Positions 21,910-41,976 of a DNA stretch of 64,000 bases are shown here, piece by piece; within the stretch, counting starts at the first letter, position 1; every line of letters begins with the position of its first letter. The notes beneath the pieces were generated by a model that searched no databases, was not told where the DNA came from, and saw nothing but the letters and a program-made list of their open reading frames with translations. Source of the stretch: an uncultured Bacilli bacterium (lineage in GTDB: Bacteria > Bacillota_I > Bacilli_A > RF39 > UBA660). The position numbers and the translations under genes are program-made. The stretch lies in the NCBI GenBank assembly GCA_934098705.1, contig CAKOPC010000003.1, positions 5,321 through 69,320 of the forward strand. Reading direction: 5' to 3'.

Positions 21910-22612
21910 TAAATCCTCCTTCCAACCTTATTTGATTTTAAAAATATTAATTATTAAATCTTGTTTATTTTTCATTAAACCAAGCTTTTATTCACAATAA
22001 CCCTTTCCTCTTTTATCTCCATCATGGTATTCTTGCCCAGATAATCCACATGATAATCTAGCAATTTGATCCATGAATTCATTCCTTAAAAGAAGAACAT
22101 CCCAATTATAACCGTCGAAATTATAGCCATTATTAATACATACTTTACTAATGTTTGACCTTTATTATTTAACATATCTACTCCTATCTTTTACAACGTG
22201 TTATAAAATTATTCTATTTCAGCTTCATTATATCACATTTTGCTTGTTTTTCCTACTAATTTCGGTTGATTTATACATATACATTTGCAATAAAATTATG
22301 TAAAAAATAGCGTTTTTGCTTAAAAAAAATTATAATTTTGAATAATTTCACAAAATTTTATTTACGATTTAATTTTATTATTAAACAATGACATAATAAT
22401 TGCTCCAAAACTATTACCCAAAATTATAAACAACATTGATATTGCAGATTTAAATGACCAAGCTTTCACTAATGAAATATAGTCCATATTAGCAATTCTT
22501 GTATTTAGTATCAACAATGCTGTAATGATTATTCCTAATAAATTATCTAACAAAGTGAATATACGAGTTTTTTAAATACCCTAATTTATTTTCTAATATA
22601 TAGCTATTTCCT

Positions 22613-27574: not shown

Positions 27575-27632
27575 ATATTTTCTCCTTTCTTTTTTGCAAT
27601 ATATCCTCTTGTTATATATATGATACCACATT

Positions 27633-27653
27633 TTTTCCGTTTTCGGTAGATTT
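27633..27653 (-). promoter_or_regulatory. Operator/promoter copy 1 of the recurring palindromic motif (TACYGAWWTCRGTA class), upstream of the rhodanese gene
   Basis: Gene-strand reading TCTACCGAAAACGGAAAAAATGTGGTATCAT: operator followed by a TGnTATCAT extended -10. Confidence 0.5.
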
Positions 27654-27713
27654 TTTTAATTTTTTCTCTCACTTTACAAAAAAACAAGCCATTTTTGACT
27701 TGTTTAAAAACAT

Positions 27714-27986
27714 TTAATTTATTTTGTCTTTTATGGCTGTGCTAAGTTTAAAGTTTACTGATTTTGAAGCTTTAATTTTTATTTTTTCACCAGTTAAAGG
27801 ATTCCTGCCATCTCTAGCAGCTCTTGCAGTAATTTTAAATATTCCAAATCCTGCAACCGAAACTTTTTCTCCTTTAGCTAATTCATCTTTAAAAATTTCA
27901 AAAGTAGTGTTAAATACTTTTTTACATTCGGTTTTTGTTAAACCTGTTTTAGTAGCTAAAGCTTCTATCATTTCTGATTTTTTCAT
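27714..27986 (-). CDS. hup: HU-family DNA-binding protein
   Basis: MKKSEMIEALATKTGLTKTECKKVFNTTFEIF...GFGIFKITARAARDGRNPLTGE, a classic HU signature; start at the internal Met. Confidence 0.8.
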   Translation of the reverse strand: MKKSEMIEALATKTGLTKTECKKVFNTTFEIFKDELAKGEKVSVAGFGIFKITARAARDGRNPLTGEKIKIKASKSVNFKLSTAIKDKIN

Positions 27987-28049
27987 TCTTGCTACCATCC
28001 TTCTATAACAAATTCATTTTTATTTAACAAAAAAATTATAATTTGTTAT

Positions 28050-28418
28050 TCAATCTTTTAATAAATTACCTTGTTTAAATTTTTCACTATATTTGATGGT
28101 TTCTTCTTTATCTAACATCGGTTCAGCACTAACATCTTCAAAGATTATTTTTTTATTTTTATAGGTAAACCAAAAATACATATTTGGTTTTTTCTCAAAT
28201 TCAACGGAAATTCTCCACTCATTATAACTTAAAATTTTATTTATATATGAATGATCTATTTTAATATTTTTTATATCACTTGAATTATATCCTCTATTTT
28301 CTATTTCAACAATAGTATCACTTTTTATGAATTTTTTCTTTATTTCAACATTTAATGCTAATCCAATGACAATAATAAATAGAATTATACCTATAATTAC
28401 TGATACTTTTCTTTTCAT
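28050..28418 (-). CDS. Membrane-anchored hypothetical protein
   Basis: N-terminal TM, 122 aa. Confidence 0.35.
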   Translation of the reverse strand: MKRKVSVIIGIILFIIVIGLALNVEIKKKFIKSDTIVEIENRGYNSSDIKNIKIDHSYINKILSYNEWRISVEFEKKPNMYFWFTYKNKKIIFEDVSAEPMLDKEETIKYSEKFKQGNLLKD

Positions 28419-28467
28419 AACTCTCCTTTACAAATTACTATTTGTCTTTCAATATATATTATAACTT

Positions 28468-29025
28468 TTAAAATCTATTTTTATTATTATATATGTAATA
28501 CATTGGTTCGACTTTTTTAAACTTTAATCTTGGAATCAATGCTGTAAGTACGGAAATTGCTTTTCTTTGATCTAATGGTTTTTCTAAATAACCATCAAAA
28601 CCAATTACATTTATAAAATATTTGGTTTCGTTTCTTTCAACCGTTAATACAATTACCTTTATATCTTTTTTTATTTTTTTTACTGCTTTTAAAACTTCTT
28701 CTCCACTACCATTATTTGAATAAGTATTATTTGTGATAATTACATTATATTTATCTGGATTATCCATAAACTCTTGAATTAATGCTTCACAACTAGGAAC
28801 AATAGTTGTTTTGCAACCAAGACTTTCTAAGATGGAATTTGATATAATTGCCATTTGCTCATAATAATCGCCAAGTAACACTGACACTTTTTTACTTGGT
28901 TTATACTTATGTAAGTTATCAATTATCTCTTTACTTTTTTCATGTACTGTTTTATTATAAAAATACGAACTGATTTTATTCTCATTATATTTATTATTAC
29001 TTGAAACAATTTCGTTTTGATTCAT
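28468..29025 (-). CDS. Orphan receiver (REC)-like domain protein lacking an output domain; the phospho-acceptor Asp may be replaced
   Basis: CheY-like alpha/beta pattern (KVSVLLGDYYEQ...NVIITNN...KVIVLTVERN...GFDGYLEKP). Start at MNQNEIV (29025). Confidence 0.4.
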   Translation of the reverse strand: MNQNEIVSSNNKYNENKISSYFYNKTVHEKSKEIIDNLHKYKPSKKVSVLLGDYYEQMAIISNSILESLGCKTTIVPSCEALIQEFMDNPDKYNVIITNNTYSNNGSGEEVLKAVKKIKKDIKVIVLTVERNETKYFINVIGFDGYLEKPLDQRKAISVLTALIPRLKFKKVEPMYYIYNNKNRF

Positions 29026-29132
29026 AATTATCACCACATTTTGTATCAAAAATTTGATCTTTAAATAGTTGTTTAAAAGCGAAAAGCATAAGATCCTATA
29101 CAAGAAATATTATACTTTTTTTACCAAAAATG

Positions 29133-29175
29133 TCAACCGATTTCAGTAAACCTTCTACCGATTTCAGTAAATTTT
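29133..29175 (-). promoter_or_regulatory. Two tandem operator copies (CAACCGATTTCAGTAAACC / TTCTACCGATTTCAGTAAATT) upstream of the REC-like gene, adjacent to the small HTH gene
   Basis: Gene-strand reading TTTACTGAAATCGGTAGAAGGTTTACTGAAATCGGTTGACA-17bp-TATAAT. Confidence 0.5.
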
Positions 29176-29284
29176 ATATCAATACTTTAAATATTTTTTT
29201 TGTTTTCAGAAAAATTTATTGAAATCAAGAGATTTTTTTATTTTTTTTTTGATATAATTACATATAGACAAAGGAGGCCATAAT

Positions 29285-29524
29285 ATGTCTTTTACGCAGG
29301 CAATAATCAATAGAATACTTGAACTATGTGAAAAGAACCATATTACTCCAAATAAGTTATCAGAACTTTCCACTGTACCGGTAGCAACACTATTTGCGTT
29401 ACTAAATGATAAAGTAGAAAATCCTAGTTCCAGAAACATATATAAAATGTGTAAGGTTTTTGGGATAACTATGGCAGAGTTTTATGATACTGATATATTT
29501 AATCAAATGAATTTTACAAAATAA
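29285..29524 (+). CDS. Small XRE-family HTH protein (79 aa)
   Basis: HTH region ITPNKLSELSTVPVATLFALLN. AAAGGAGG RBS; own -10 TATAAT at ~29248. Confidence 0.55.
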   Translation: MSFTQAIINRILELCEKNHITPNKLSELSTVPVATLFALLNDKVENPSSRNIYKMCKVFGITMAEFYDTDIFNQMNFTK

Positions 29525-29589
29525 TTATTTATATCGCAACCAAAATGGTTGTTTTCTTTTTACATAATTTTTTTATTTTTTTAAACATT

Positions 29590-29625
29590 TTCTACCGATT
29601 TCAGTAAATACTGTGATATAATTTA
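29590..29625 (+). promoter_or_regulatory. Operator copy plus extended -10 promoter (TTCTACCGATTTCAGTAAATACTGTGATATAAT) driving a non-coding transcript
   Basis: Same operator-to--10 architecture as the other copies. Confidence 0.5.
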
Positions 29626-29775
29626 ATTGTAGAGGAAATACGGGCATTTAAGTTATAAAGATGGATATATAAGCGAAACCGCAACCTATTTTCCTCTGCA
29701 TCCCACTTTATGTTTTTCATTTAATCTACACACTCCTTTCTGAAAATGAGGCAAAAATGTCTCATTTTTGTTTTT
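29626..29775 (+). ncRNA. Candidate ~150-nt small RNA or orphan leader
   Basis: Lies between the operator promoter and an intrinsic terminator (AATGAG-gcaaaaatgt-CTCATT + TTTTGTTTTTT, 29737-29770). Contains a 10-bp closing stem AGAGGAAATA...TATTTTCCTCT. No ORF. Confidence 0.3.
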
Positions 29776-29832
29776 TATGTCATGTTAAACATAATGTTTT
29801 GTAAAAAAAAACTCTAAAGTAATTAAGTTATT

Positions 29833-29995
29833 TTAATACTTAATACTAAAAGTAGTTCCTTTTCCTTTTAAAGATTTCATAATAACTCTTCCATTATCCT
29901 TTTCTATTATTGCTTTTGCTAAAGATAATCCTATCTCATTACTATCATTATTAGAGTTTTTCCCTTTATAAAATCTTTTATTTTTATCTTGATGT
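29833..29995 (-). pseudogene. Remnant of the C-terminal ATP-binding (HATPase_c) end of a sensor histidine kinase
   Basis: Minus-strand translation ...KRFYKGKNSNNDSNEIGLSLAKAIIEKDNGRVIMKSLKGKGTTFSIKY* resembles the G2 box through the C-terminus of histidine kinases. In-frame stops follow immediately upstream. Confidence 0.4.
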
Positions 29996-30174
29996 AAGTG
30001 TTATTTTTATCAACTCCATCTTAATTATATATAACTAATGTTACATCTAAGTTACAAAATGATAAAAAAAAGAGAATAGTATAAGCTACAATGGTAAAGG
30101 AGGCTTGTCTCAAATTTCTCTATTGCAGCTAGCCAATATAGCCATTCTATCCTCTTAACACTATTTTACCATAT

Positions 30175-30198
30175 TTTTTCCGTTTTCAGTAGAAAATT
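30175..30198 (-). promoter_or_regulatory. Operator copy oriented toward the histidine-kinase remnant
   Basis: Minus-strand reading TTCTACTGAAAACGGAAAAAATATGGTAAAAT (operator + extended -10). A degenerate half-site (GATATCAGTAAAT) also sits near the perR promoter at ~30225-30240. Confidence 0.45.
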
Positions 30199-30282
30199 AT
30201 TATTTATTTACATAAAAGTTTTTGATATCAGTAAATTATTATGATATATTATTAGTAATCATTACTATTAAGGAGGTAATTG

Positions 30283-30653
30283 TGAGAAATACTACACAAA
30301 GAAATTTAATACTAGATATTATTAATAATTCATGCAATCATTTAACAGCAGAAAAAGTACATGAAATTGCTAGAAAAAGTATTTTAAATATTAGTTTAGG
30401 AACAGTATATAGAAATCTAAATATTCTAGTAGAACTTCAAAAGATAAGAAAAATTAAAACTTTTGATGGGAAAGATCATTATGACAAACTGAATATTAAA
30501 CATAATCACTTTATTTGTTTAAAATGTAATAAAATATTTGATATACATGAAGCATCTAATATTGAGTATAAAAATATTCCAAATGATTTTGAAATAGTAA
30601 ACTATGATATTACCTACTCTGGTTATTGTAATGAATGTAAGAAAGGAAAGTAA
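30283..30653 (+). CDS. Fur-family transcriptional regulator (PerR-like)
   Basis: Fur-family DNA-binding helix and two C-terminal CxxC pairs ([10 protein letters not shown] ... GYCNECKK). GTG start after AAGGAGG RBS. Immediately followed by rubrerythrin. Confidence 0.7.
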
Positions 30654-30655
30654 AG

Positions 30656-31198
30656 ATGGAAAATCTAAAAGGAACAAAAACAGAAAAAAATTTAATGGAA
30701 GCATTTGCTGGTGAATCACAAGCAAGAAATAAATATACTTATTATGCTTCTAAGGCAAGAAAAGATGGTTTTGAACAAATTGCTGCAATTTTTGAAGAAA
30801 CTGCTAATAATGAAAAAGAACATGCTAAATTATGGTTTAAAGAACTTCATGGTGGCGAAGTTCCTAGTACATTAGAAAATCTTAATGATGCTGCAAGTGG
30901 TGAAAACTATGAATGGACAGATATGTATGAAAGAATGGCTAAAGAAGCAAAAGAAGAAGGATTTACAAGAATTGCTAATCTTTTTGAAGGAGTTGCCAAA
31001 ATTGAAAAAGAACATGAAGAAAGATACAAAAAATTAATTGAAAATATTAATAATGACTTAGTATTTTCTAGTGAAGGTGATACTATTTGGATATGTCGCA
31101 ACTGTGGTCATATTGTCATTGGTAAAAAAGCACCAGAAGTTTGCCCTGTTTGTTCTCACGCTAAATCATTCTTTGAAAGAAAAGCAAATAATTATTAA
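30656..31198 (+). CDS. rbr: Rubrerythrin
   Basis: Ferritin-like di-iron domain ([33 protein letters not shown]) plus C-terminal rubredoxin-like CRNCGH...CPVCSH. Confidence 0.85.
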
Positions 31199-31204
31199 TT
31201 TTAT

Positions 31205-31245
31205 GTCAGTAAAAAAGTTTGCAAAAAAGCAAACTTTTTTTATAT
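31205..31245. terminator. Bidirectional intrinsic terminator
   Basis: AAAAAGTTTGC-aaaaaa-GCAAACTTTTT hairpin with flanking T/A runs, between convergent rbr and MMPL genes. Confidence 0.5.
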
Positions 31246-31248
31246 ATT

Positions 31249-33414
31249 TTATGATTTACTCTTATTATTAACTATCTTTTTATCAAATAAGACAATAATA
31301 CTTGGCAAGACAAATAATATTAATAATACTGCAATAGTTACTCCGATTGCTATTATATGGCAGATCTCTCCTATCGCAGGATCTTTAAAGACAAACCCTA
31401 ATACACCAGTTATAATAATCATTATTAGTGATGATGTAAGAATTGTATGAATTGATTTATTATATGTTTCTTTTAAAGATATTCTTATACTGTTTTCTTT
31501 CCTTAGCTCTCTATAATAGTTTGTAAATAATATTGCATAATCAATCGTAGCACCCATTAAGATACTTTGTACTATAAGTAAAGATAGATAATATACTTTC
31601 ATATCTAATATATTAATAATACTCATTAATATATAGACAGCACACTGAATTAGTAATACTAATATAAATGGAATAATTAGCGATTTAAAGGTAAATAAAA
31701 CTACCAAAAATATTAAAACTATTGTAATAATTGTAAGTTTATTCATTTCATAATTAAAGTTATTACTCATTTCATAGTTCATTATAGAATTTCCTATAAA
31801 GTAATATTTTTCATTTAATTTATTCATACATTCTTTGTCTAATTTATCAATAAAAGTAAATGTATCTTTTGATTCTTCTTTATATGATGTGCTTATATTA
31901 ATAATAGAATGGTTTTCTCCAACAAACATTTTTTTAGCTTCTTGTATCATATTATTAGCACTATTTATTTCTAGAAGCATATCATCATTAATCATATTTT
32001 TAAAGTTATTTTGATTTTGTATTATAAAATTAATAAGTTCTTCAAGTGTTAATTTAGAATCATTATTGTATTTATCTTGATAGATAGTTTTATAAATACT
32101 AACGATAATTTCTTTATTAATATCAATATTTTGCATTTTTAAAAAATAATCTAATTCATCGGCATTATATTTTTTCCCTACTGTCGTTTTATAAGTATTT
32201 ATAGTTTTAACCTTATCATCAATAGTTAGATAATTTATAATTTCATCAATATTATCTTCATTTTTATTTTCATATAAAAGTACTATATTATTATCTCTTT
32301 TAAAAACCTTACTGATAGTATTATCTTTCGGTGTATCAAAAGTAACTATATTTGTTCCTTTAATAAAATATAAACCGGCAAATAGTATTATAAAAGTTAA
32401 TGATATTATATATTTATATTTTTGACTAAATATGGCGATTTTTTCCATATTTATATGAGGATATTTCTTATGTGTTTTATATATTAGTTTATCAAATATA
32501 AGTATAAGTGATGGTAATACTGTAAAGATACATATTAAACTAATTAATACTCCTTTAGATAAAACTATTCCTAAATCTGTTCCTATTTTAAAACTCATAA
32601 ATAAAAGTGCTAAAAGTCCTACTATAGTAGTAAATGAACTACCCATAATAGATGGAAATGATTTTTTTATTGCCTCTTTCATTGAAGTTAAATTATTTTT
32701 ATTATTTTCTTTTTCTTCACGGTAGCGATTAAGTAACATTATTGAATAATCCATTGTTAGAACAAGTTGCAAGATAGCTGCGATGGAATAAGTGGTATAT
32801 GACACTTCACCAAGTAAATAATTGGTTCCTAAATTAATGATAATTGCAATTCCTATTGTTATTATAAATAATACCGGTTCTATCCATGATGAACACATAA
32901 TAAGTAATATTATTAGTAGTATTGAAAAAGCAAATATAATAATTGAAATAGGAACATTAGTAGTATCACTATCTAGTTCATATACGAGTTTATATTCTTC
33001 TTTTAGATTATCAAGTTCTTTTTTAATATTTTTTATTTCATCAGAATTAGAATTATATTTACTAGTTAACACATATAACGTGTGATTATCCTTATTATAT
33101 GCATTACTTTCATTATCATAACTGATTGTATAAATGTTTTTTACTTCTTTTAATTTATTATAAACATCTAACTTTTTATTATTATCTAAGTCATCTATCA
33201 TTACCCAAACAGTACTCATATTTTTAACATCTGGTAATTCTTTTTCTAAAATATCAATGCCTTTTTTCATTGAAGAATTAGATGGTAAATATTTAGTCAT
33301 ATCTTGATTTATATTTACTTTATTCATAGCAAATATACTCACGCAAGTAACAAGTAACATAAATAATAAAATATAATTTCTTTTTTCTGTTATGAAATTT
33401 ATTATTTTTTTCAT
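31249..33414 (-). CDS. MMPL/RND-superfamily membrane transporter
   Basis: 721 aa. Two blocks of ~6 TM helices, each preceded by a large extracytoplasmic domain. Divergent from the TetR gene. Confidence 0.6.
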   Translation of the reverse strand: MKKIINFITEKRNYILLFMLLVTCVSIFAMNKVNINQDMTKYLPSNSSMKKGIDILEKELPDVKNMSTVWVMIDDLDNNKKLDVYNKLKEVKNIYTISYDNESNAYNKDNHTLYVLTSKYNSNSDEIKNIKKELDNLKEEYKLVYELDSDTTNVPISIIIFAFSILLIILLIMCSSWIEPVLFIITIGIAIIINLGTNYLLGEVSYTTYSIAAILQLVLTMDYSIMLLNRYREEKENNKNNLTSMKEAIKKSFPSIMGSSFTTIVGLLALLFMSFKIGTDLGIVLSKGVLISLICIFTVLPSLILIFDKLIYKTHKKYPHINMEKIAIFSQKYKYIISLTFIILFAGLYFIKGTNIVTFDTPKDNTISKVFKRDNNIVLLYENKNEDNIDEIINYLTIDDKVKTINTYKTTVGKKYNADELDYFLKMQNIDINKEIIVSIYKTIYQDKYNNDSKLTLEELINFIIQNQNNFKNMINDDMLLEINSANNMIQEAKKMFVGENHSIINISTSYKEESKDTFTFIDKLDKECMNKLNEKYYFIGNSIMNYEMSNNFNYEMNKLTIITIVLIFLVVLFTFKSLIIPFILVLLIQCAVYILMSIINILDMKVYYLSLLIVQSILMGATIDYAILFTNYYRELRKENSIRISLKETYNKSIHTILTSSLIMIIITGVLGFVFKDPAIGEICHIIAIGVTIAVLLILFVLPSIIVLFDKKIVNNKSKS

Positions 33415-33508
33415 TAATAATTTCTCCCTTCTTTGACTTATATGTCTATTTATATTATAATATACATATGTTGATTTTACAGCCAGCAGTTTATAAAAAT
33501 TTGTTATT

Positions 33509-33540
33509 AAATAAACATTAAAATAATATATGTTTATTTA
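33509..33540. promoter_or_regulatory. Perfect 10-bp inverted repeat AAATAAACAT-N11-ATGTTTATTT in the MMPL/TetR divergent intergenic region (candidate TetR operator)
   Basis: Seen directly in sequence; position is typical for TetR autoregulatory operators. Confidence 0.4.
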
Positions 33541-33564
33541 ATAAATGAAAGGAGTAAATTATTT

Positions 33565-34095
33565 ATGAATATCAAAGATAATCGTCGTGTTTCAATGACT
33601 AAAAAAATTATTAAAGATACATTTATTGAAATGTTAGAAAAGAAAAATATTCAAAAGATTTATGTTAGAGAATTATGTGAATCTGCTGATATTAATAGAA
33701 GTACATTCTATAAATATTATGAATCACAATATGATTTATTAGCAGAAATGCAAAATGATTTGCTCATTCAAATAGAAGAAAAATGTAAAGATACTGATAA
33801 TATAAAAGGATTAAATAATATATTACATTATCTAAATAATAATAAAAAAATGTATAAGATTATTTTTAATGCAAATATTGATCCAATATTTCCAAAAAAA
33901 TTGTTAAATTTGCCTATTATTACTGAAATATTAAATAGCAAAATGTCTAGTAAAACTGAAACTAAATATAAGAAAACTTATATTCTTGAGGGTGGATACC
34001 ATGTTATATTAGAATGGTTAAATAATGATTGCAAAGAACCGGCAGAAAAGATAACTGAAGTCCTTATGAAATATATAAATCAAAATTTGAAATAG
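33565..34095 (+). CDS. TetR/AcrR-family transcriptional regulator
   Basis: N-terminal HTH KIYVRELCESADINRSTFYKYYESQYDL; 176 aa. Confidence 0.75.
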   Translation: MNIKDNRRVSMTKKIIKDTFIEMLEKKNIQKIYVRELCESADINRSTFYKYYESQYDLLAEMQNDLLIQIEEKCKDTDNIKGLNNILHYLNNNKKMYKIIFNANIDPIFPKKLLNLPIITEILNSKMSSKTETKYKKTYILEGGYHVILEWLNNDCKEPAEKITEVLMKYINQNLK

Positions 34096-34100
34096 AAAAA

Positions 34101-34145
34101 AAGTTTATAGAAAGTAAATATATCTATAAACTTTTTATTTATACT
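34101..34145. terminator. Bidirectional intrinsic terminator
   Basis: AGTTTATAG-aaagtaaatatat-CTATAAACT hairpin flanked by A/T runs, between convergent genes. Confidence 0.4.
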
Positions 34146-35559
34146 GATAAGGATTATTAACTGTCCCATCTCCTGTCATTTCAAAATTGCCGTTTATTGT
34201 TATGACTGGTCTTATATAATAACTATTCGTTAATAAATTTCTAGTCCAGTCAGTAGGAGATCCATTTTTATCTACAATAAAAACATTTCCATTTTTATAT
34301 GTTGGATCGTAATATGCTGGGGATAATGTCCAGTAGTAATCAGGAATGCTAGAATTATATAAGAAATATGAAGTGTTATTTTTTTTATAAGCTCCTCCTG
34401 CTAAAACAACTTCTTCTGCACTTATTAATCCAATATTTTCTTGAGTAATATATTTACTAGGACAAACTAGTATTGGAGAATAATTATTACTATCTTGACC
34501 TAAATTTTCATATGATTGAAAATAATTAACATTCGCATATGTACCTGATGATTTTCTTGTATAATAATCAAGATTTATACAAAAATTTGATTTTACGATT
34601 TTATCAGAATTAGATGCTAAATTATTTTGATACCAATTATCTAAAATTGGTTTAATATTACTATTACCATAAGCAAGCATTTCTTTTGCTAAATCTATTG
34701 TATCAGCAGAAGCACTATCTCTATATTTAGATGTTGTTCCACTTATTACACCATCTAATACAATTCTTAGATTACCATTTTCATCTATTTGTAGTATTCT
34801 CCATGTGAACCCTCCAAAAGAAACATAGTTATCATCATAATTACCTCTTAGTAAAATTACATTTTCATTATTTATACCTTTTATAGTATGTATTTCTTTT
34901 CCAGTAGCAATATTACTAAATTTTTGTTTTCTTTCTGTTTCTTCCATACTTTCAATATCTATATGTTCTATATCTTGGGCATTACCAGATGGTACATAAT
35001 TATTTACAAGAGTTGTTTCCATTTGAGTTTGATTTATTTTAAAGTTAAAACCTATATATGATACTAAAGTGTTAGAATCAGGAACAATATTATCTTTATA
35101 ACTAAAAGTAATACTAAATTCTTTAAATGTATGTGGCTCTATCTTAGTATCTTTATCTATACCAGTTAATGTAAATATTATATTTTGATTACTATAGAAT
35201 GCATTATCATAAATAGGATTATTAAATCTATATGTTTCGTTATTTTTATTATACACTTTAATTTTATATGTAATAGAGGAGTTTCCATTTGTGTTTGATA
35301 ATACAATTCTAGAATTTAAAGTGGTACTAGAAAATGTTATTATTTTTGACTCTTCTAAATTTGCATCGATATTTGAATCATAATTAACTTCAGTTATAAA
35401 TAAACCATCTTGTGAAACAAGACTAACATCTCCACTAATATCAAGAGTAATAGAGTTTACTATTGCATATCCAATAGACATAAATAAAGTTGTAAGCGTA
35501 ATCAAAAATAAATAAAGTGGCTTTTTATTAATATTTTTATTTTTTATTGATTTATCCAT
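34135..35559 (-). CDS. Large secreted protein with SipW-cognate (TasA/camelysin-type) N-terminal signal region
   Basis: N-terminal TM then SIGYAIVNSITLDISGDVSL, which parallels the GVGYALTTIDLKVNGDITV segment of the TasA-like protein in the same operon. Start probably MDKSIKN. Confidence 0.45.
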   Translation of the reverse strand: MDKSIKNKNINKKPLYLFLITLTTLFMSIGYAIVNSITLDISGDVSLVSQDGLFITEVNYDSNIDANLEESKIITFSSTTLNSRIVLSNTNGNSSITYKIKVYNKNNETYRFNNPIYDNAFYSNQNIIFTLTGIDKDTKIEPHTFKEFSITFSYKDNIVPDSNTLVSYIGFNFKINQTQMETTLVNNYVPSGNAQDIEHIDIESMEETERKQKFSNIATGKEIHTIKGINNENVILLRGNYDDNYVSFGGFTWRILQIDENGNLRIVLDGVISGTTSKYRDSASADTIDLAKEMLAYGNSNIKPILDNWYQNNLASNSDKIVKSNFCINLDYYTRKSSGTYANVNYFQSYENLGQDSNNYSPILVCPSKYITQENIGLISAEEVVLAGGAYKKNNTSYFLYNSSIPDYYWTLSPAYYDPTYKNGNVFIVDKNGSPTDWTRNLLTNSYYIRPVITINGNFEMTGDGTVNNPYQYK

Positions 35560-35604
35560 ATATATCACCATTTATTTAAAATAAAAGAATATGATAGAAA
35601 AGTA

Positions 35605-36738
35605 TCATAATTCAAAATCATTAATTATTCCTTTTTCTACTGCATTTTCTCTCATTTGCTTTTTTATTTTAGATACTTTCAAAGAATAAGTATAAAGAAT
35701 CTTTGTGTTACTAGGAATTATAAAATATACTCCAGTTTTTTCTTTGTTTTCAGTCATTAATATTGGTTGACCTAGTGTATCCCTTATTTCTAACATATCA
35801 GTAAATTCATCTACTTGAAGAACTTGATATCCACTTAAATCAAATGAATTATTTATTTTTTGAATATAACTTTTATAATTGTTAAGAATTTTTTGCAATT
35901 CTCTTTGATATATGCTTTCAGCTGTTCTTGTTTTAATTATATATTTTACTAAAATCACTAAAACTATAATTTCAATTAGAAACACTATAACTGCAACGAC
36001 TAGGAATAAAAAGTTAAATGGAGATTTTTCTATACAAGCCATAAAGTTTTCTTGCTTTGCATCTACTAGACTTTTTGAGATATCAATGGCAACTGTCTTG
36101 GTAGTTAGTGGAATACTTAAAGAAACAGTTGATGTCTTATCCGTATCTTTGATATCTTCACATTCTCCTAATACCTTAATATTCATAACTATATCAAGAG
36201 TTGCTATAGACTCATCTAAATTATATATACTAACAAATTTTTTAATTAAATCATTATATTTATTATAATCTATTGTTACATCTTCTTTTATTTGTACACT
36301 TGATTTACTATTTGAATGATTTATCTTATCACTAATAAGCGTATCAGTGTATTTATATATTGAGTTTTTAGTATTTTTATCTATTACATTTACATTTGCT
36401 TCAATAGAATACTGATATTTATAATCTATATTTTTTTCGCTAACATTTAAATTATAATCAAATGTGGCATTAATATAATCTATAAGATTAGCTATATATT
36501 GATTATTTGCATCTAGATACTCTTTATTAAAGAATTCATTATCTTTTAAATAAACTTTATAATCTATTTTACTTTCTTCATTATAAGGAACGTAATAAGT
36601 TTTATTCTTTGTTAAAAATAGACACACGAAAGACATAACTATGAATGTTAAGATAAATAACACACAAGCATAACTTATAATCGTTTTTCTACGTTTAGTT
36701 TGATCAACAAGTATTGCATTAACTTGATTCTTTTTCAT
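35605..36738 (-). CDS. Two-TM membrane protein of unknown function within the fibre operon
   Basis: 377 aa; TM near the N-terminus and at ~aa 235-265. Confidence 0.4.
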   Translation of the reverse strand: MKKNQVNAILVDQTKRRKTIISYACVLFILTFIVMSFVCLFLTKNKTYYVPYNEESKIDYKVYLKDNEFFNKEYLDANNQYIANLIDYINATFDYNLNVSEKNIDYKYQYSIEANVNVIDKNTKNSIYKYTDTLISDKINHSNSKSSVQIKEDVTIDYNKYNDLIKKFVSIYNLDESIATLDIVMNIKVLGECEDIKDTDKTSTVSLSIPLTTKTVAIDISKSLVDAKQENFMACIEKSPFNFLFLVVAVIVFLIEIIVLVILVKYIIKTRTAESIYQRELQKILNNYKSYIQKINNSFDLSGYQVLQVDEFTDMLEIRDTLGQPILMTENKEKTGVYFIIPSNTKILYTYSLKVSKIKKQMRENAVEKGIINDFEL

Positions 36739-36771
36739 AGTTAGACTCCTTTCTTTTTATTCTATATTTAT

Positions 36772-37890
36772 TTATGAAAACATTTCTTTTATCCAAATTG
36801 ATGGATAACCAATATATTTTATTCTTAATTTTGATATCCCAATGATATCACTATCCACTAAATAATAATCATCTGCACTCATATTGGCGTCCCCTTTAGT
36901 GTAATATCTAATACTACCATTTATATCTTTTTTATCAATAACTCTATGTATAATTTGCAATCCGTCTTTTTTAAATACGATAATATCTCCTGTTTTAATG
37001 TTTTGTTTATCATATTTAACAAATATTGTTGTATCTCCCATATTAAGAGCTCCTGTCATACTTTTAGATCCAATTACCAATATTCCATATTTAAACTGAC
37101 AAGATATTAACATTGTTATCGAAGATAAAACTATTATTAATATAGTAGTCCCCACAATCTCTCTTTTTTTATCCTTATAAGCAACTGCAAAATTTGTTTT
37201 TGAATAGGTATATTCTAGAAACAAATATATAAAGTATGGATAAACAATTTTTAAAAATGTTCTAAAGAAGATGTATATGTTTGGAGTATAAGGAATAATA
37301 AAAGAATATAAAATAGTTATTAGTCTATATACAACAACACTGTTTTTCCCATATCTTAGTGAAATATAATTATAAAGCAAATTACTTGAAATAGATGAGA
37401 ATACAATAAAACCGATTATAATTAATAAATCCTCTAGGTTCGAGTAACTATAAACTTCACCATAAATTATTAGATCAATAAGAACAAATGCAATAAAGGG
37501 GATTATCTTAGCAAATTTTCCTCGTTGTGCTAGAAATATTTCTCTAATTACTTCAGTTGAGTACACAATGATTGTTATTGGAATTATATAATATAATAAA
37601 GCAACTTTACCAAATTTAACCGAAGATTCATAAAAACCAAAGTGTATTCCCATTAGGTAAAAAACTATTAGATAAATAATTCCCATTGCACTCATTACTA
37701 TTGTTACTTCTTTTTTGTAGTGAGATATAATATTTCTTTTTTTAATTATTTTTTTTAGTATCAACATATAAATAAGAAGAAATATTGACAAATATATTGT
37801 TTTATATATTGTTGACACAAAGAGAATAAAGAAAAGAAATGTAACTAAAATAAATTCAAACACATAATTTTTTATCTTATCTATACCCAT
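36772..37890 (-). CDS. Fusion of a polytopic membrane domain (~250 aa, ~8 TM) with a C-terminal SipW/ER-type signal peptidase I (S26B) domain
   Basis: C-terminal GSKSMTGALNMGD (catalytic Ser box), DIIVF, IIHRV (His), YYTKGDAN: Ser/His-type S26B signature. Confidence 0.6.
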   Translation of the reverse strand: MGIDKIKNYVFEFILVTFLFFILFVSTIYKTIYLSIFLLIYMLILKKIIKKRNIISHYKKEVTIVMSAMGIIYLIVFYLMGIHFGFYESSVKFGKVALLYYIIPITIIVYSTEVIREIFLAQRGKFAKIIPFIAFVLIDLIIYGEVYSYSNLEDLLIIIGFIVFSSISSNLLYNYISLRYGKNSVVVYRLITILYSFIIPYTPNIYIFFRTFLKIVYPYFIYLFLEYTYSKTNFAVAYKDKKREIVGTTILIIVLSSITMLISCQFKYGILVIGSKSMTGALNMGDTTIFVKYDKQNIKTGDIIVFKKDGLQIIHRVIDKKDINGSIRYYTKGDANMSADDYYLVDSDIIGISKLRIKYIGYPSIWIKEMFS

Positions 37891-37927
37891 AAAATCCCTC
37901 TTCTTTATCTACTTTCTATCAACTATA

Positions 37928-38443
37928 TTACTTTGTTGCACTAGCATTAAATGTAACAGTAAAGTTTCCTGTAACTTCTTCTAAAGGTGCTTTTACTAAT
38001 TCAACTGTAACAGTTAGTTTCTTTGTTCCATTTGGAGCAATAGCAGCGTTATCTGCAAGTTCTGCTGTAACTGTATAATAATCTTTTGCAGTATCATCTG
38101 TTTGTGTTGCTGTTGGATTAGATAATGTTGCGTTAATACCAGCTTTACTGTTATTAGTTATTGTGTATTCTGCAACAACTTTTTCACCAACTGTTTTTAA
38201 TGTTTTTACAGATAGTGTTGCTATTTTTCCATTTCCTTTATCAGCTGTATCAGTTTTACCTGTTAAAGTTCCAGTTGTTGTTATGCTAGCATCAGTAAAA
38301 TTAACATCAAAGTTACTATCATCTGGACTAACTGTAATATCACCATTTACTTTTAAGTCAATAGTAGTAAGGGCATAACCAACACCTAAAACTAGTACTG
38401 CAACAACTAAAGCAAGAGCAACAAATGATTTTTTCTTTTTCAT
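37928..38443 (-). CDS. TasA/camelysin-like secreted fibre subunit candidate (SipW-cognate signal peptide)
   Basis: 171 aa. MKKKKSFVALALVVAVLVLGVGYALTTIDLKVNGDITV then Thr/Asn/Val-rich beta-type sequence. Immediately upstream of the SipW-like peptidase. Confidence 0.5.
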   Translation of the reverse strand: MKKKKSFVALALVVAVLVLGVGYALTTIDLKVNGDITVSPDDSNFDVNFTDASITTTGTLTGKTDTADKGNGKIATLSVKTLKTVGEKVVAEYTITNNSKAGINATLSNPTATQTDDTAKDYYTVTAELADNAAIAPNGTKKLTVTVELVKAPLEEVTGNFTVTFNASATK

Positions 38444-38605
38444 CTCTTTTCACCTCCTCGCACAATATTTTTATGGGAGTAATCTACATAATAGCTACTC
38501 CCAAATAACTATCATGCTTTTTAAGGTTAAGATATAAGAATATAAACTATTTAAAATTAGAGTCTGTCCTTCTACCTTAATCTTACAATTATAATTATAT
38601 CATAC

Positions 38606-38648
38606 TTTTCCGAAATCGGCAAAGAAAATTTTCGTTTTCGGAAAAAAT
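38606..38648 (-). promoter_or_regulatory. Two operator copies overlapping the promoter of the tasA-like/sipW operon
   Basis: Gene-strand reading CCGAAAACGAAAATTTTCTTTGCCGATTTCGGAAAAGTATGATATAAT. CCGATTTCGG is a perfect palindrome; it sits in -35 position, 17 bp from TATAAT. Confidence 0.5.
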
Positions 38649-38723
38649 AAATATAAAAAAGAGTTATATGTGTATTATTTATTCATTAGTTAACAAAAAA
38701 AGAAATCTAATTAAATAGATTCC

Positions 38724-39806
38724 TTATCTCATAGAAAAACTATTATTTATAGTTAATATACTATACATAAAAAGAACATCTTGATTATTAAATTTTATAT
38801 AATTATTCAAAATCCTTGAAGAAACATATCTAATATCAATAACAGTAATCTTCTTATAACCCTCTATTAACAAAGGAATTAAACTACTACCATAAGAATC
38901 ACGGAAAACAATTAATTCTTTATTACTATTTGAAGTAGGATTAACAATATCAATAATAGAAGATGCTCCTGATAAATATATATCATATTTATCTAATGAT
39001 TTTAGTTTGTCATAATCATATATTTGTGTATATTTTTTAGTTTCATAATTATACACACTGCTATTAAGAGTAGATGGATTAGATATAGTTTTTATAGTAT
39101 CAATATCTTTAGTTACTGATAATCTACCAGCATAACTACCTTTAAAAGTAGTAACAGTATTTATAACATTGTTATTAGTTATATCAAAGTTCATTTGATT
39201 AGCAATAGTATTTGCAACATTAAATAAATCTTCTTGTTTCCAATGAGTATCAGTCTTATAATAATTATTAAGTGTTAATTTATCAAATATATTTATATAA
39301 TTAAGACTTGTTAAATTACTTTTCATCATATCTTGTAATTTATTATAATCAAGTTTTAAATTACCTTTATTAACAAAATAATTTTTATCAGGAATAATAG
39401 TATAATATATATTACTATTATTATTCAAATATGTATTTTTTATATAATTAATCTTATTTGTTAAATTATTAATAGAATTAGTATTTAAAGGAAATATTTC
39501 TTCAACAATATAATCATCGTACATATATAAATTATTATATTCACCTTTAGTAGATAATTCTATATCTATTTTAATTTTTCTAAAAGTATCTCTTTTAATA
39601 AACTGATCCGTAACATAGGAATCAAATTTCTTAAAATATGTACCATCAAACAAGCTTTTAGTAGTTAGTTCTGGCATAGTAGCAAGTTTTCTTCTCTCTG
39701 CTATAGAAATATCAGTATCTTTTTTTATAACATTAATCAAAAATAATGAAATTATAGTAAAAAGAAATACTAAAGTTACAACTATATTTTTAATTTTATC
39801 GTTCAT
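38724..39806 (-). CDS. DHHW-family (AlgX/DltD-like SGNH-type) extracytoplasmic O-acyltransferase partner
   Basis: N-terminal TM anchor; KTDTHW (DHHW-like) motif. Located directly downstream of the MBOAT gene. Confidence 0.55.
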   Translation of the reverse strand: MNDKIKNIVVTLVFLFTIISLFLINVIKKDTDISIAERRKLATMPELTTKSLFDGTYFKKFDSYVTDQFIKRDTFRKIKIDIELSTKGEYNNLYMYDDYIVEEIFPLNTNSINNLTNKINYIKNTYLNNNSNIYYTIIPDKNYFVNKGNLKLDYNKLQDMMKSNLTSLNYINIFDKLTLNNYYKTDTHWKQEDLFNVANTIANQMNFDITNNNVINTVTTFKGSYAGRLSVTKDIDTIKTISNPSTLNSSVYNYETKKYTQIYDYDKLKSLDKYDIYLSGASSIIDIVNPTSNSNKELIVFRDSYGSSLIPLLIEGYKKITVIDIRYVSSRILNNYIKFNNQDVLFMYSILTINNSFSMR

Positions 39807-39817
39807 GTATAACCTCC

Positions 39818-41215
39818 TTAAAATCTAAAATATAGAAATGGATTATATGAATTGTCTATCAAATAAGAAGTAACAACAAATAATATGATTACTATTAAAA
39901 TTGGTTCTAAAATATTAATTATGTTATTTACATATTTATTTTTTCTTAACTTTTCTATTAATGTTTTAATAAAAGGAGTAGCCCCAAATAAAGCAATAAT
40001 TAGTAATGGTAGATAACTCTTTAAGTAATGGAGTGTATAATCATTAATAAAAACTTCTCCATTCATACCAAATAACCCTTTAATATTAGTCAAAGCCACT
40101 TGCATATTGTCAGAATTAAATATAATAAATAATATCATAACAATAAATAATACATATATTCTTCTTATAAAAGAAGGTAATTTTTCTATAAATTTATTAA
40201 GGAATAATTTTTCTATTATAAGAATAATTCCAAACAATAATCCCCATATTAAAAAAGTCCAATTAGCACCATGCCATATTCCAGTTAATAACCATACTAT
40301 TAAAATATTTCTTATTTGTTTATATTTACCATCTCTATTACCTCCAAGTGGAATATAAACATAATCTTTAAACCATGTACTAAGAGAAATGTGCCATCTT
40401 CTCCAAAACTCAGTTATACTTTTTGATATATATGGGTAATTAAAGTTTTCAGGGAAATTAAATCCAAATATTCTTCCAAGACCAATAGCCATATCACTAT
40501 AAGCAGAAAAATCAAAATACAACTGTAGCATATAACTTATACCAAATATCCAATAAAATATTACGGTTGTTTCATTTAGAGCGAAAGCTTTAGTACAAAG
40601 TTCTCCCAAAGCATTTGCTATTAATACTTTTTTAGCAAGTCCAATAGAAAATCTTCTAATACCATATGCAAAATTATTAAAACTATGTACTCTATCATCT
40701 AATTCTTTTTCTACTGTTTGATATCTAACAATAGGTCCTGCGACTAACTGTGGAAATAAAGATACATAAGTGGCTAAATTTATAATGTTTTTTTGAACTT
40801 TAACTTTTCCATTATATACATCAATAACATAACTTATAATTTGAAATGTATAAAATGATATTCCTATTGGTAATGCAATATTTAATAATTTAATATTAGC
40901 ATTAGATATATCATTAATTGTTTGTATAATAAAATCAGTATATTTAAATATTATTAATAAAAATACATGTATAAATAAAGTTGTTATTAATATATTTTTA
41001 CTTTGATTTTTATATTTATCAATTAAAATAGCTCCTATATAAGCAATAATAATTTCTGCAATCATTAAAAAAACATATTTAGGTTCTCCGTAAAAATAAA
41101 ATAATAAAGATGCAATTAATAAAATAATATTTTTATATTTTTTAGGTGTTATAAAATATATAATTATTAATGCTGGTAAAAAATAATATAAAAAACTAAT
41201 ACTAGTAAATAACAT
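39818..41215 (-). CDS. MBOAT-family membrane-bound O-acyltransferase (AlgI/DltB/PatA-like)
   Basis: 465 aa polytopic; conserved WRRWHISLSTWFKDYVYIPLGGNR block and catalytic His region. Confidence 0.75.
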   Translation of the reverse strand: MLFTSISFLYYFLPALIIIYFITPKKYKNIILLIASLLFYFYGEPKYVFLMIAEIIIAYIGAILIDKYKNQSKNILITTLFIHVFLLIIFKYTDFIIQTINDISNANIKLLNIALPIGISFYTFQIISYVIDVYNGKVKVQKNIINLATYVSLFPQLVAGPIVRYQTVEKELDDRVHSFNNFAYGIRRFSIGLAKKVLIANALGELCTKAFALNETTVIFYWIFGISYMLQLYFDFSAYSDMAIGLGRIFGFNFPENFNYPYISKSITEFWRRWHISLSTWFKDYVYIPLGGNRDGKYKQIRNILIVWLLTGIWHGANWTFLIWGLLFGIILIIEKLFLNKFIEKLPSFIRRIYVLFIVMILFIIFNSDNMQVALTNIKGLFGMNGEVFINDYTLHYLKSYLPLLIIALFGATPFIKTLIEKLRKNKYVNNIINILEPILIVIILFVVTSYLIDNSYNPFLYFRF

Positions 41216-41254
41216 TTTATCCTCCTTTAAAAAGGCACCTTAAAAGGTGCTTCA

Positions 41255-41833
41255 TTATTCTTCTGCTGGCATTTCTGGTGGAAGTTCTATATTTTCTTCG
41301 TTATTTGATTTTTCTAATTCTTTTCCAATATTATTATTTACATATTTCTTAAAATCATTATATACTGCTTTAGCAATATCTTTATCAGCCATTACAGAGA
41401 ATATTATATTACCACTATTAGTGATATATAATTGTTCTGCAGAAACACAAATCCATCGTCTCATATCAATATTATCTAGCATCTCTTGTTTAATTTTTTC
41501 TACATCAGCACTCTCTTTAACCTTAACAATAGCAACTGAATAAGCTTGTGCTGTTATCAATGGTACTGATACAACAATTGATTCGATACCATCATTTGTT
41601 TTTAAACCAGTATAACTATTAACTTCATCAATATTCTTTATATCTACTTTCATAGTTTCAAGTTCAGGTAAAATATCTTTGTTATTTTTATTTATAGTAT
41701 TAATAATGTTATTAATGTTTTTTGGTGTATTACCACCGCCTTTATTTCCGCCACTTGATACTAGTATGATTATTATAAATGATATAACTGCTAATAATAT
41801 CAAACCTATTATAAAAATATTTTGTTTTTTCAT
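41255..41833 (-). CDS. Membrane-anchored extracytoplasmic protein of unknown function (DUF4358-like)
   Basis: Signal anchor, Gly/Asn-rich linker, ~130-aa globular domain. Confidence 0.35.
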   Translation of the reverse strand: MKKQNIFIIGLILLAVISFIIIILVSSGGNKGGGNTPKNINNIINTINKNNKDILPELETMKVDIKNIDEVNSYTGLKTNDGIESIVVSVPLITAQAYSVAIVKVKESADVEKIKQEMLDNIDMRRWICVSAEQLYITNSGNIIFSVMADKDIAKAVYNDFKKYVNNNIGKELEKSNNEENIELPPEMPAEE

Positions 41834-41867
41834 TTCTTTCTCCTCTCCATATTTAAATTATATCATA

Positions 41868-41893
41868 CTTTTACCGAAATCAGTAAAAAAATT
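41868..41893 (-). promoter_or_regulatory. Operator copy plus extended -10 promoter upstream of the DUF4358-like gene
   Basis: Gene-strand reading TTACTGATTTCGGTAAAAGTATGATATAAT. Nearly identical to the tasA-like promoter, including the AAAAGTATGATATAAT tail. Confidence 0.5.
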
Positions 41894-41976
41894 ATTACGT
41901 TTTACAAAAATTAAATTTCAACTATTTAAAAAGTAACCATTTCTGATTTACTTTTATAAATTATAAATATTTATTA

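Follow-up and report, generated by a model that had tools for sequence, protein, structure and literature searches.

Several described systems come close to the locus reported here. The controller (C) proteins of restriction-modification (R-M) systems, e.g. C.AhdI and C.Esp1396I, are stand-alone XRE-fold dimers of ~80 residues that work through several palindromic operators, and the position of the operator sets the outcome: near -41 it activates the protein's own promoter and over the -35 element it represses. The CI-Cro switches of phages lambda and 434 have their palindromic operator within a region of divergent promoters, with tandem sites two helical turns apart; one and the same dimer is placed at ~ -42 of one promoter and across the -35 and -10 elements of others. 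In Bacillus subtilis, SinR (with SinI) represses a matrix operon containing sipW; it has an XRE fold and is a master switch for surface structures. CylR2 of Enterococcus faecalis is a 66-aa stand-alone helix-turn-helix (HTH) dimer that represses via an inverted repeat over -35; it has no sensor domain, its signal enters through a partner, the membrane protein CylR1, and it acts on a single target promoter. We analysed a 64-kb window (the whole stretch of contig CAKOPC010000003.1 under study, with 25.5% GC) from an uncultured gut Bacilli bacterium, in which one palindrome recurs in promoters around the gene of a 79-aa XRE/Cro-CI-type HTH protein (PF13443; 29285-29524, plus strand). On balance we think it probable that the palindrome is the operator of this adjacent protein, which would bind it as a dimer and thereby repress five transcription units, named A, C, D, E and F after their sites.

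The 14-mer TACYGAWWTCRGTA has 14 matches with at most two mismatches in the window against 3.1 expected, and none out of 100 shuffles reaches 14. The strict core, C[CT]G[AT]4C[AG]G (CYG-W4-CRG), occurs seven times, starting at 27637, 29137, 29158, 29595, 30180, 38610 and 41874, compared with a mean of 0.86 and a maximum of 5 in first-order Markov simulations; an eighth, weak copy, E1, lies at 38632-38641 on the minus strand. All seven strict copies are intergenic and fall between 27.6 and 41.9 kb, and no strict core is found elsewhere in the window, the first 22 kb and the last 22 kb being empty. Five cores are coupled to an extended -10 element (TRTGnTAnnnT, with the TG 7-10 nt away), a combination expected 0.000 times in the Markov simulations. 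Altogether the palindrome marks the promoters of about seven units close to one another, which concern the cell surface, transport or a small RNA. The analysis as a whole covered the 64-kb window plus fetched flanks of up to 10 kb on each side. Enrichment, promoter coupling and symmetry all support the proposal of a sequence-only reading of this DNA that the copies are operator sites of a dimeric regulator, linked to promoters and forming a local regulon, and we keep it as a prediction; the coordinates and example strings quoted there are all exact in the sequence.

The symmetrised consensus of the palindrome is TtTACCGAwwTCGGTAaA. The operator has dyad symmetry, i.e. both half-sites are conserved, with TA/TA flanks, and the central 4 nt read AAAA, ATTT, AAAT, AATT or TTTT independently of the direction of transcription. 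Conserved half-sites and a centre that occurs in either orientation point to recognition by a symmetric dimer and not by a sigma factor. The motif does occupy the -35 position of five promoters, as the -35 element of an alternative sigma factor would; we regard this explanation as extremely improbable, since the motif is symmetric and is found in both orientations relative to transcription, also lies at -41 beside separate -35 hexamers, and is combined with canonical housekeeping -10 elements, TRTGnTATAAT. A full-text literature search with the palindrome strings gave no bacterial regulator, the sole thematic match being the unrelated papillomavirus E2 site ACCGN4CGGT. We also looked for a second element common to the targets, AGAGGAWAnAWWG located 3' of the -10, and its frequency is not significant (11 observed against 6.5 expected). 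The look-alike at 30222 (TTGATATCAG) was not counted as a site, as it is the -35 of the perR-rubrerythrin promoter (TTGATA-17-TATATT with TG, 30222-30267); a Fur/PerR-type box, TTAGTAATCATTACTA (30252-30267), lies 3' of this promoter and is unrelated to the palindrome.

Read along transcription, sites A (27646), C (29595), D (30189), E2 (38619) and F (41883) have a single layout: a T-rich stretch, TAC-YGAWWWCRG-WA, 10-12 nt, and the hexamer of TRTGnTAWMAT. None of the five target promoters A, C, D, E and F has a -35 hexamer. Site A (27620-27648, minus strand) consists of the operator TACCGAAAACGGAA (core 27637-27646), an 11-nt gap and TGTGGTATCAT (27620-27630); its core is invariant across strain and species variants, the A-run spacing ranges from 10 to 12 nt, and the HU terminator (27682-27705) is located just 5' of it. 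Site C (29593-29782, plus strand) has the operator TACCGATTTCAGTA (29593-29606), a 12-nt gap and TGTGATATAAT (29612-29622), and site D (30060-30191, minus strand) has its core at 30180-30189, an 11-nt gap and TATGGTAAAAT (30163-30173). In the E region (38588-38641, minus strand) E2 (core 38610-38619) and the weak E1 are 22 bp apart, and a 10-nt gap separates E2 from TGATATAAT (38594-38602). Site F (41857-41885, minus strand) has its core at 41874-41883, an 11-nt gap and TGATATAAT (41857-41865). The 8-10 nt read earlier between operator and -10 are correct when counted from the 14-mer, and correspond to 10-12 nt from the 10-mer core.

A second geometry is found around the XRE gene. Sites B1 (29137-29146) and B2 (29158-29167) lie 21 bp apart on the minus strand (29109-29167), and B1 abuts a perfect TTGACA (29131-29136)-16-TATAAT (29109-29114), a 12/12 match that forms the promoter of a divergent pseudo-receiver gene; the two operator centres are at ~ -40.5 and -61.5 of this promoter. 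On the plus strand a weak, degenerate copy, B3 (29219-29258), places TTGAAATCAA (29219-29228) 24 nt 5' of the XRE gene's own TGATATAAT -10 (TATAAT at 29253-29258, TG at 29250-29251), with its centre near -41 and a poor -35. The idea that the operator replaces the -35 thus stands at A, C, D, E and F and does not apply to 29137 and 29158, which are sited 5' of the perfect TTGACA-16-TATAAT. The tandem spacings of 21-22 bp and the divergent arrangement recall the operators of lambda and 434.

Comparison with other genomes links the palindrome to the XRE gene. We searched relatives of the XRE protein in one genome per species, which gave 33 loci (L numbers below), and added metagenome homologues at 86% and 60% identity. 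In every lineage whose XRE protein is 51-78% identical, i.e. L032-L040 (75-78%), L041 (62%), L015 (60%), L042 and L043 (57%), L044 (52%) and L045 (51%), a palindrome lies exactly 24 nt 5' of the XRE -10. It is a perfect CCGAWWTCGG or CTGAWWTCGG, with a one-base variant in L039 of the L032-L040 group, and its chance rate, scaled from the Markov simulation, is ~1.3e-3 per 100 nt. In L015, L041, L042, L044 and L045 the palindrome also abuts the TTGAYW -35 of a divergent promoter on the opposite strand. Which genes neighbour XRE depends on the lineage; among them are genes for a 76-aa protein, for proteins that resemble AbrB or a receiver, and for one with a SipW-type signal peptide. The XRE gene alone recurs at every motif-bearing locus. 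Since the palindrome keeps a fixed offset from the XRE gene while the flanking genes differ, the 79-aa XRE protein is the best candidate binder, and the operator is linked to its gene across orthologues as expected for autoregulation. The sequence-only reading had listed this protein among its candidate regulators and had suggested looking for co-conservation; the co-inheritance found here, at the 24-nt offset and down to 51% identity, favours it.

The spacing classes are also seen in the wider set. We took 160 unique oriented contexts and measured the distance between the core and an extended -10; it has two peaks, one at 10-12 nt (39 contexts) and one at 23-24 nt (14 contexts). The 75-78% group has independent target-type sites in L037 at 6836 (in front of a 515-aa surface protein) and in L040 at 682.

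Several site pairs are alike beyond the consensus, namely A and D (27 bp at 93%), B2 and C (20 bp identical) and E2 and F, suggesting that promoter modules have spread by duplication, which is compatible with a functional operator. These identities, together with the exchange between genera of operons headed by the sites, could also be read as a duplicated promoter cassette or a dispersed repeat resembling a miniature inverted-repeat transposable element (MITE), with the palindrome as a passenger that no protein binds. This reading is very improbable: the similarity is confined to ~45 bp without extended terminal repeats, none of the copies falls within a coding sequence or at an arbitrary location, the core is kept while flanks and central bases diverge down to 51% XRE identity, there are two discrete spacings to the -10, and just 1-2 plausible matches occur in 2.9 million viral contigs. 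The dispersed repeat at random positions that had been named as an outcome refuting the regulon is hence not what we see, the copies being located in promoters at two fixed spacings.

A phage origin was considered and rejected, as the XRE protein has no match in PHROGs and the scan of viral contigs shows no enrichment. The operator-plus-promoter pattern gave four matches in that scan, of which two are chance matches in coding sequence, one occurs with an XRE homologue and one is unclear. We note that L049, a 43-kb IMG/VR contig with a viral classification, encodes an XRE homologue (75%) at 477-707 and has a target-type operator-promoter at 1597-1623; it may be a prophage neighbourhood or a misclassified contig. 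Besides this lack of a PHROG match, our locus differs from lambda and 434 in having no prophage context and no C-terminal dimerisation or cleavage domain.

The XRE gene is monocistronic, with a terminator at 29536-29552. Its product is of the Cro/C1-type HTH class (Pfam HTH_26, PF13443, E 9.3e-9; PF01381, E 8.4e-6), and the AlphaFold2 (AF2) model is a five-helix HTH (pLDDT 88.7) that stands alone, with the HTH domain only and no sensor domain. The nearest PDB structures are 3B7H, the N-terminal domain of DdrO, the N-terminal domain of SinR and R-M controller proteins. The closest solved relative, 3B7H (prophage Lp1 protein 11 of Lactobacillus plantarum; E 3.4e-10, TM-score 0.84-0.87), is a structural-genomics entry with no assigned function or operator, and it is just 23% identical to the XRE protein. 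Across the homologue set the best-conserved parts are helix 2, helix 3 and the segment NPSxxNIYKxCK. The close subfamily is small, with about ten 50%-identity clusters at E <1e-20 within a family of 1409 representatives, and the protein is indexed in 3450 blocks of the assembly collection. Two contigs of one assembly (L016 and L017, CAKOLN01) encode an identical XRE protein, reflecting either two copies per genome or a strain mixture.

The fold invites two comparisons. The N-terminal domain of SinR is a top fold match; the XRE protein, however, has 79 aa without the C-terminal SinI/SinR oligomerisation domain, and the operator reads CCGAWWTCGG and not GTTCTYT, so it does not group with SinR. 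R-M controller proteins are also among the Foldseek matches. Pfam scans of the genes around XRE found no endonuclease and no methyltransferase, the operator is unrelated to C-boxes, and the proposed targets comprise a small RNA along with operons for surface proteins and transporters, so the locus does not belong to the R-M systems.

How the protein would act can be read from the promoter geometry. The XRE protein would bind the palindrome as a dimer, presumably a homodimer, and RNA polymerase at A, C, D, E and F would rely on the Gram-positive TRTGn extended -10. When the -10 hexamer is set at -12 to -7, the 10-bp core at the targets spans ~ -33 to -24 with its centre near -28.5 and the operator spans ~ -35 to -22, leaving 8-10 bp between its edge and the -10 hexamer and 5-7 bp between its edge and the TG. 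Extended -10 promoters function without a -35, so binding of a protein at -35 to -22 should repress them. A bound dimer may thus cover ~ -35 to -22 and block polymerase at the rhodanese/surface operon, the small RNA, the ABC/two-component module (deleted here), the operon with the SipW-type peptidase and the MBOAT/DHHW operon. An operator over this part of promoters that do not depend on a -35 favours repression, and in L044 the divergent receiver-gene promoter has a second palindrome copy in its spacer, where repressors classically bind. We therefore favour repression over activation at the targets. What we observe is the motif with its two spacing classes, the fold of the protein, and the inheritance of the motif together with the XRE gene; the binder, the repression and its relief are what we infer.

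Class II activation, which had been proposed for the listed targets, does not fit their geometry: the centre lies near -28.5 with the -35 and the spacer covered, and only at the XRE and divergent promoters does it lie near -41. In a broader form the XRE protein would bind and activate the targets, serving as a surrogate for the -35 contact in a class II-like way, and the units would be off by default. The targets do have no -35, the operator at the XRE and divergent promoters occupies the classic activator position at ~ -41, and PhoB and MerR-type activators are known to work from the -35/spacer region. We nevertheless consider activation unlikely, because the operator edge is so close to the -10 hexamer and the TG, the TRTGn extended -10 promoters need no -35, the L044 copy lies inside a promoter spacer, and small stand-alone Cro/CI and C proteins repress from such a position. 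Around the XRE gene itself the effect may have either sign: the operator centred near -41 of the XRE and pseudo-receiver promoters would mediate autoregulation, and activation of the lambda CI or C protein kind is possible there, as the -41-type geometry of lambda CI at PRM and of C proteins gives positive autoregulation.

Several points weigh against repression by the XRE protein. The -41 site of the XRE promoter is degenerate (TTGAAATCAA) in the window's clade, where the outer C/G of the palindrome at the B3 position have changed to T/A. The strong pair B1/B2 lies 5' of a consensus promoter, at which simple steric repression is not obvious. The target position is in itself compatible with activation of the PhoB or MerR type, and the start sites behind all promoter numbering come solely from -10 matches. 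L011, whose XRE protein is 86% identical, lacks any target-type site in the 10 kb on each side. Within the 75-78% group, the fact that the E and F operators are conserved does not count as independent evidence, their cassettes being ~96% identical DNA. Finally, the search was confined to the 64 kb and the fetched flanks. With these points taken into account, we find the sequence-only reading largely right in proposing a regulon with the XRE protein as the best candidate, and we correct the sign to likely repression.

Site D bears on a further alternative, in which another regulator, i.e. the OmpR-type response regulator of the module at D or an unlinked factor, binds the palindrome and the XRE gene is merely a target. 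In most other strains site D is the promoter and leader of an operon for an ABC ATPase, an 816-aa FtsX permease, an OmpR-type response regulator and a histidine kinase. The window has lost ~4.8 kb of this module (junction ~30014-30029; compare L002 10775-15570), including the ATPase, the permease, the response regulator and most of the kinase, and L001 and L009 carry the same deletion. The site had been assigned to a histidine-kinase remnant; the remnant is real, and the site is the promoter of the whole module, which is intact in other strains. That strains keeping the module have site D on its promoter would suit its response regulator as the binder, as would the use of inverted repeats near transporter promoters by Bce-type regulators. 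The window, L001, L009 and L011, however, lack the module, as do the fetched stretches of distant lineages (up to 10 kb on each side); the motif is kept there and the 24-nt offset persists, and only the XRE gene is common to all motif loci; we hold a different binder to be quite unlikely. As site D is the module's own promoter and the motif stays by the XRE gene where the module is absent, the module is more plausibly a target than the decayed two-component regulator it had been taken for.

We now turn to the target units and to the divergent receiver gene. The site A operon runs on the minus strand from 27631 down to 22613 and encodes a rhodanese, a DUF5301/Big_14 protein, a 428-aa protein, a DUF6320 protein and a 489-aa protein. 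From site E (38443 down to 34135, minus strand) a secreted 171-aa beta-sandwich protein, an S26 peptidase (match E 6.9e-7) that is SipW-like and carries a fused membrane domain, a DUF5305 protein and a 478-aa protein are transcribed, and from site F (41833 down to 38724, minus strand) a DUF4358 protein, an MBOAT O-acyltransferase and a DHHW protein. The theme common to the targets is the cell surface and envelope, and not the sulfur or redox metabolism that had been suggested. The label "TasA-like" for the 171-aa protein was not confirmed either: it has no match in Pfam, NCBIfam or PDB sequence searches, and Foldseek with its AF2 beta-sandwich model did not retrieve TasA (best TM-score 0.39).

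The E and F units behave as exchangeable cassettes. The E promoter is present also in L009, L033 and L037, and the F module also in L032. The two operons (34147-38710 and 38686-41944 in the window) are ~96% DNA-identical in L032/L033/L037, where the XRE region is only 75-78% identical and E/F-type cassettes directly adjoin the XRE gene, and the E cassette is missing from L002, L004 and L006, i.e. from some strains of the window's species. This pattern in the sequences suggests that E and F are promoter-plus-operon cassettes recently exchanged between genera. In more distant relatives of the SipW operon we found no operator, and the neighbour is a GerE/LuxR-type protein, so that the operator wiring appears lineage-specific. 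In L053 (5905-7296) and L055 (6503-7891) an operon for a secreted protein, a SipW-like peptidase and a DUF5305 protein is preceded by a 462-aa GerE/LuxR-type HTH protein, which suggests that a different regulator controls the SipW-type operon in these relatives.

A possible extra member of the regulon lies at 22086-22265 (minus strand), where a half-degenerate copy, CCGAAATTAG (22265 to 22256), is located 23 nt 5' of TGTGATATAAT. The promoter region (22227-22265) precedes a 29-aa Flp-pilin-like open reading frame (ORF; MLNNKGQTLVKYVLIMAIISTVIIGMFFF, 22175 to 22086, minus strand). In L023, L024, L026 and L030 the promoter of the Flp-pilin-like ORF has a full operator 11 nt from its -10.

The gene divergent from XRE encodes a single-domain, 185-aa receiver-like protein (28468-29025, minus strand; Pfam Response_reg, E 1.5e-7), probably followed in the B unit by a gene for a 122-aa protein. 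In a manual alignment to CheY the acceptor Asp appears to be replaced by Asn (IITNN), and Gly-Asp-Tyr stands where the acidic pair is expected, so that the protein looks like a pseudo-receiver. A receiver-like gene adjoins the XRE gene in L011 and L044, and in L031 there is DNA similarity only (75%); none is found beside the XRE gene in the 75-78% group. The L044 homologue (upstream of 9938) has an extra N-terminal membrane helix. The pseudo-receiver is a target and possibly a partner of the XRE protein, i.e. a candidate partner in some lineages (L011, L044). CylR2, in comparison, has one target promoter, whereas several targets are predicted here, and no CylR1-like membrane partner was identified.

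Site C heads a non-coding RNA of ~150 nt (about 29629-29782, plus strand) with an intrinsic terminator at 29741-29770 plus a T-run. Within the window's clade the RNA shows 89-96% conservation, and the changes in its stems are wobble-compatible only; no compensatory changes were found in the covariation analysis, the sequences being too similar to inform. It has a free CUCCUUUCU stretch, complementary to ribosome-binding sites. An antisense 39-aa ORF opposite the small RNA was rejected since it is broken by 1-nt indels. The promoter at D is followed by a leader of ~95 nt (30060-30155, minus strand) with a closing stem and then a U8 run, resembling an attenuator placed before the ABC genes. The D leader and the C small RNA both begin AGAGGA..., with pairing to ...UCCUCU/UUCUCU. 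A scan of 26-44 kb against Rfam gave nothing for the small RNA or the leader, only a sub-threshold SpF10 match on the HU terminator.

We speculate, and rate it a long shot, that the XRE gene anchors a strain-variable island of surface cassettes, in which exchanged cassettes carry the operator plus an extended -10 and would be repressed on landing, and that positive autoregulation from -41 together with the pseudo-receiver could make a bistable switch. If true, the whole surface-cassette island would be a bistable on/off switch in an uncultured gut lineage. A full-text literature search found no transcriptional circuit described for the host lineage, whose members are widespread, uncultured, low-GC gut bacteria. 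The mechanism is a textbook one and the circuit is of a well-known kind; it is of interest chiefly for its uncultured host and for targets that are exchangeable cassettes. The operator, a named candidate repressor and a list of targets together give a handle on surface and envelope control in this lineage, and the circuit is open to testing in a heterologous host, for which culture of the bacterium is not needed.

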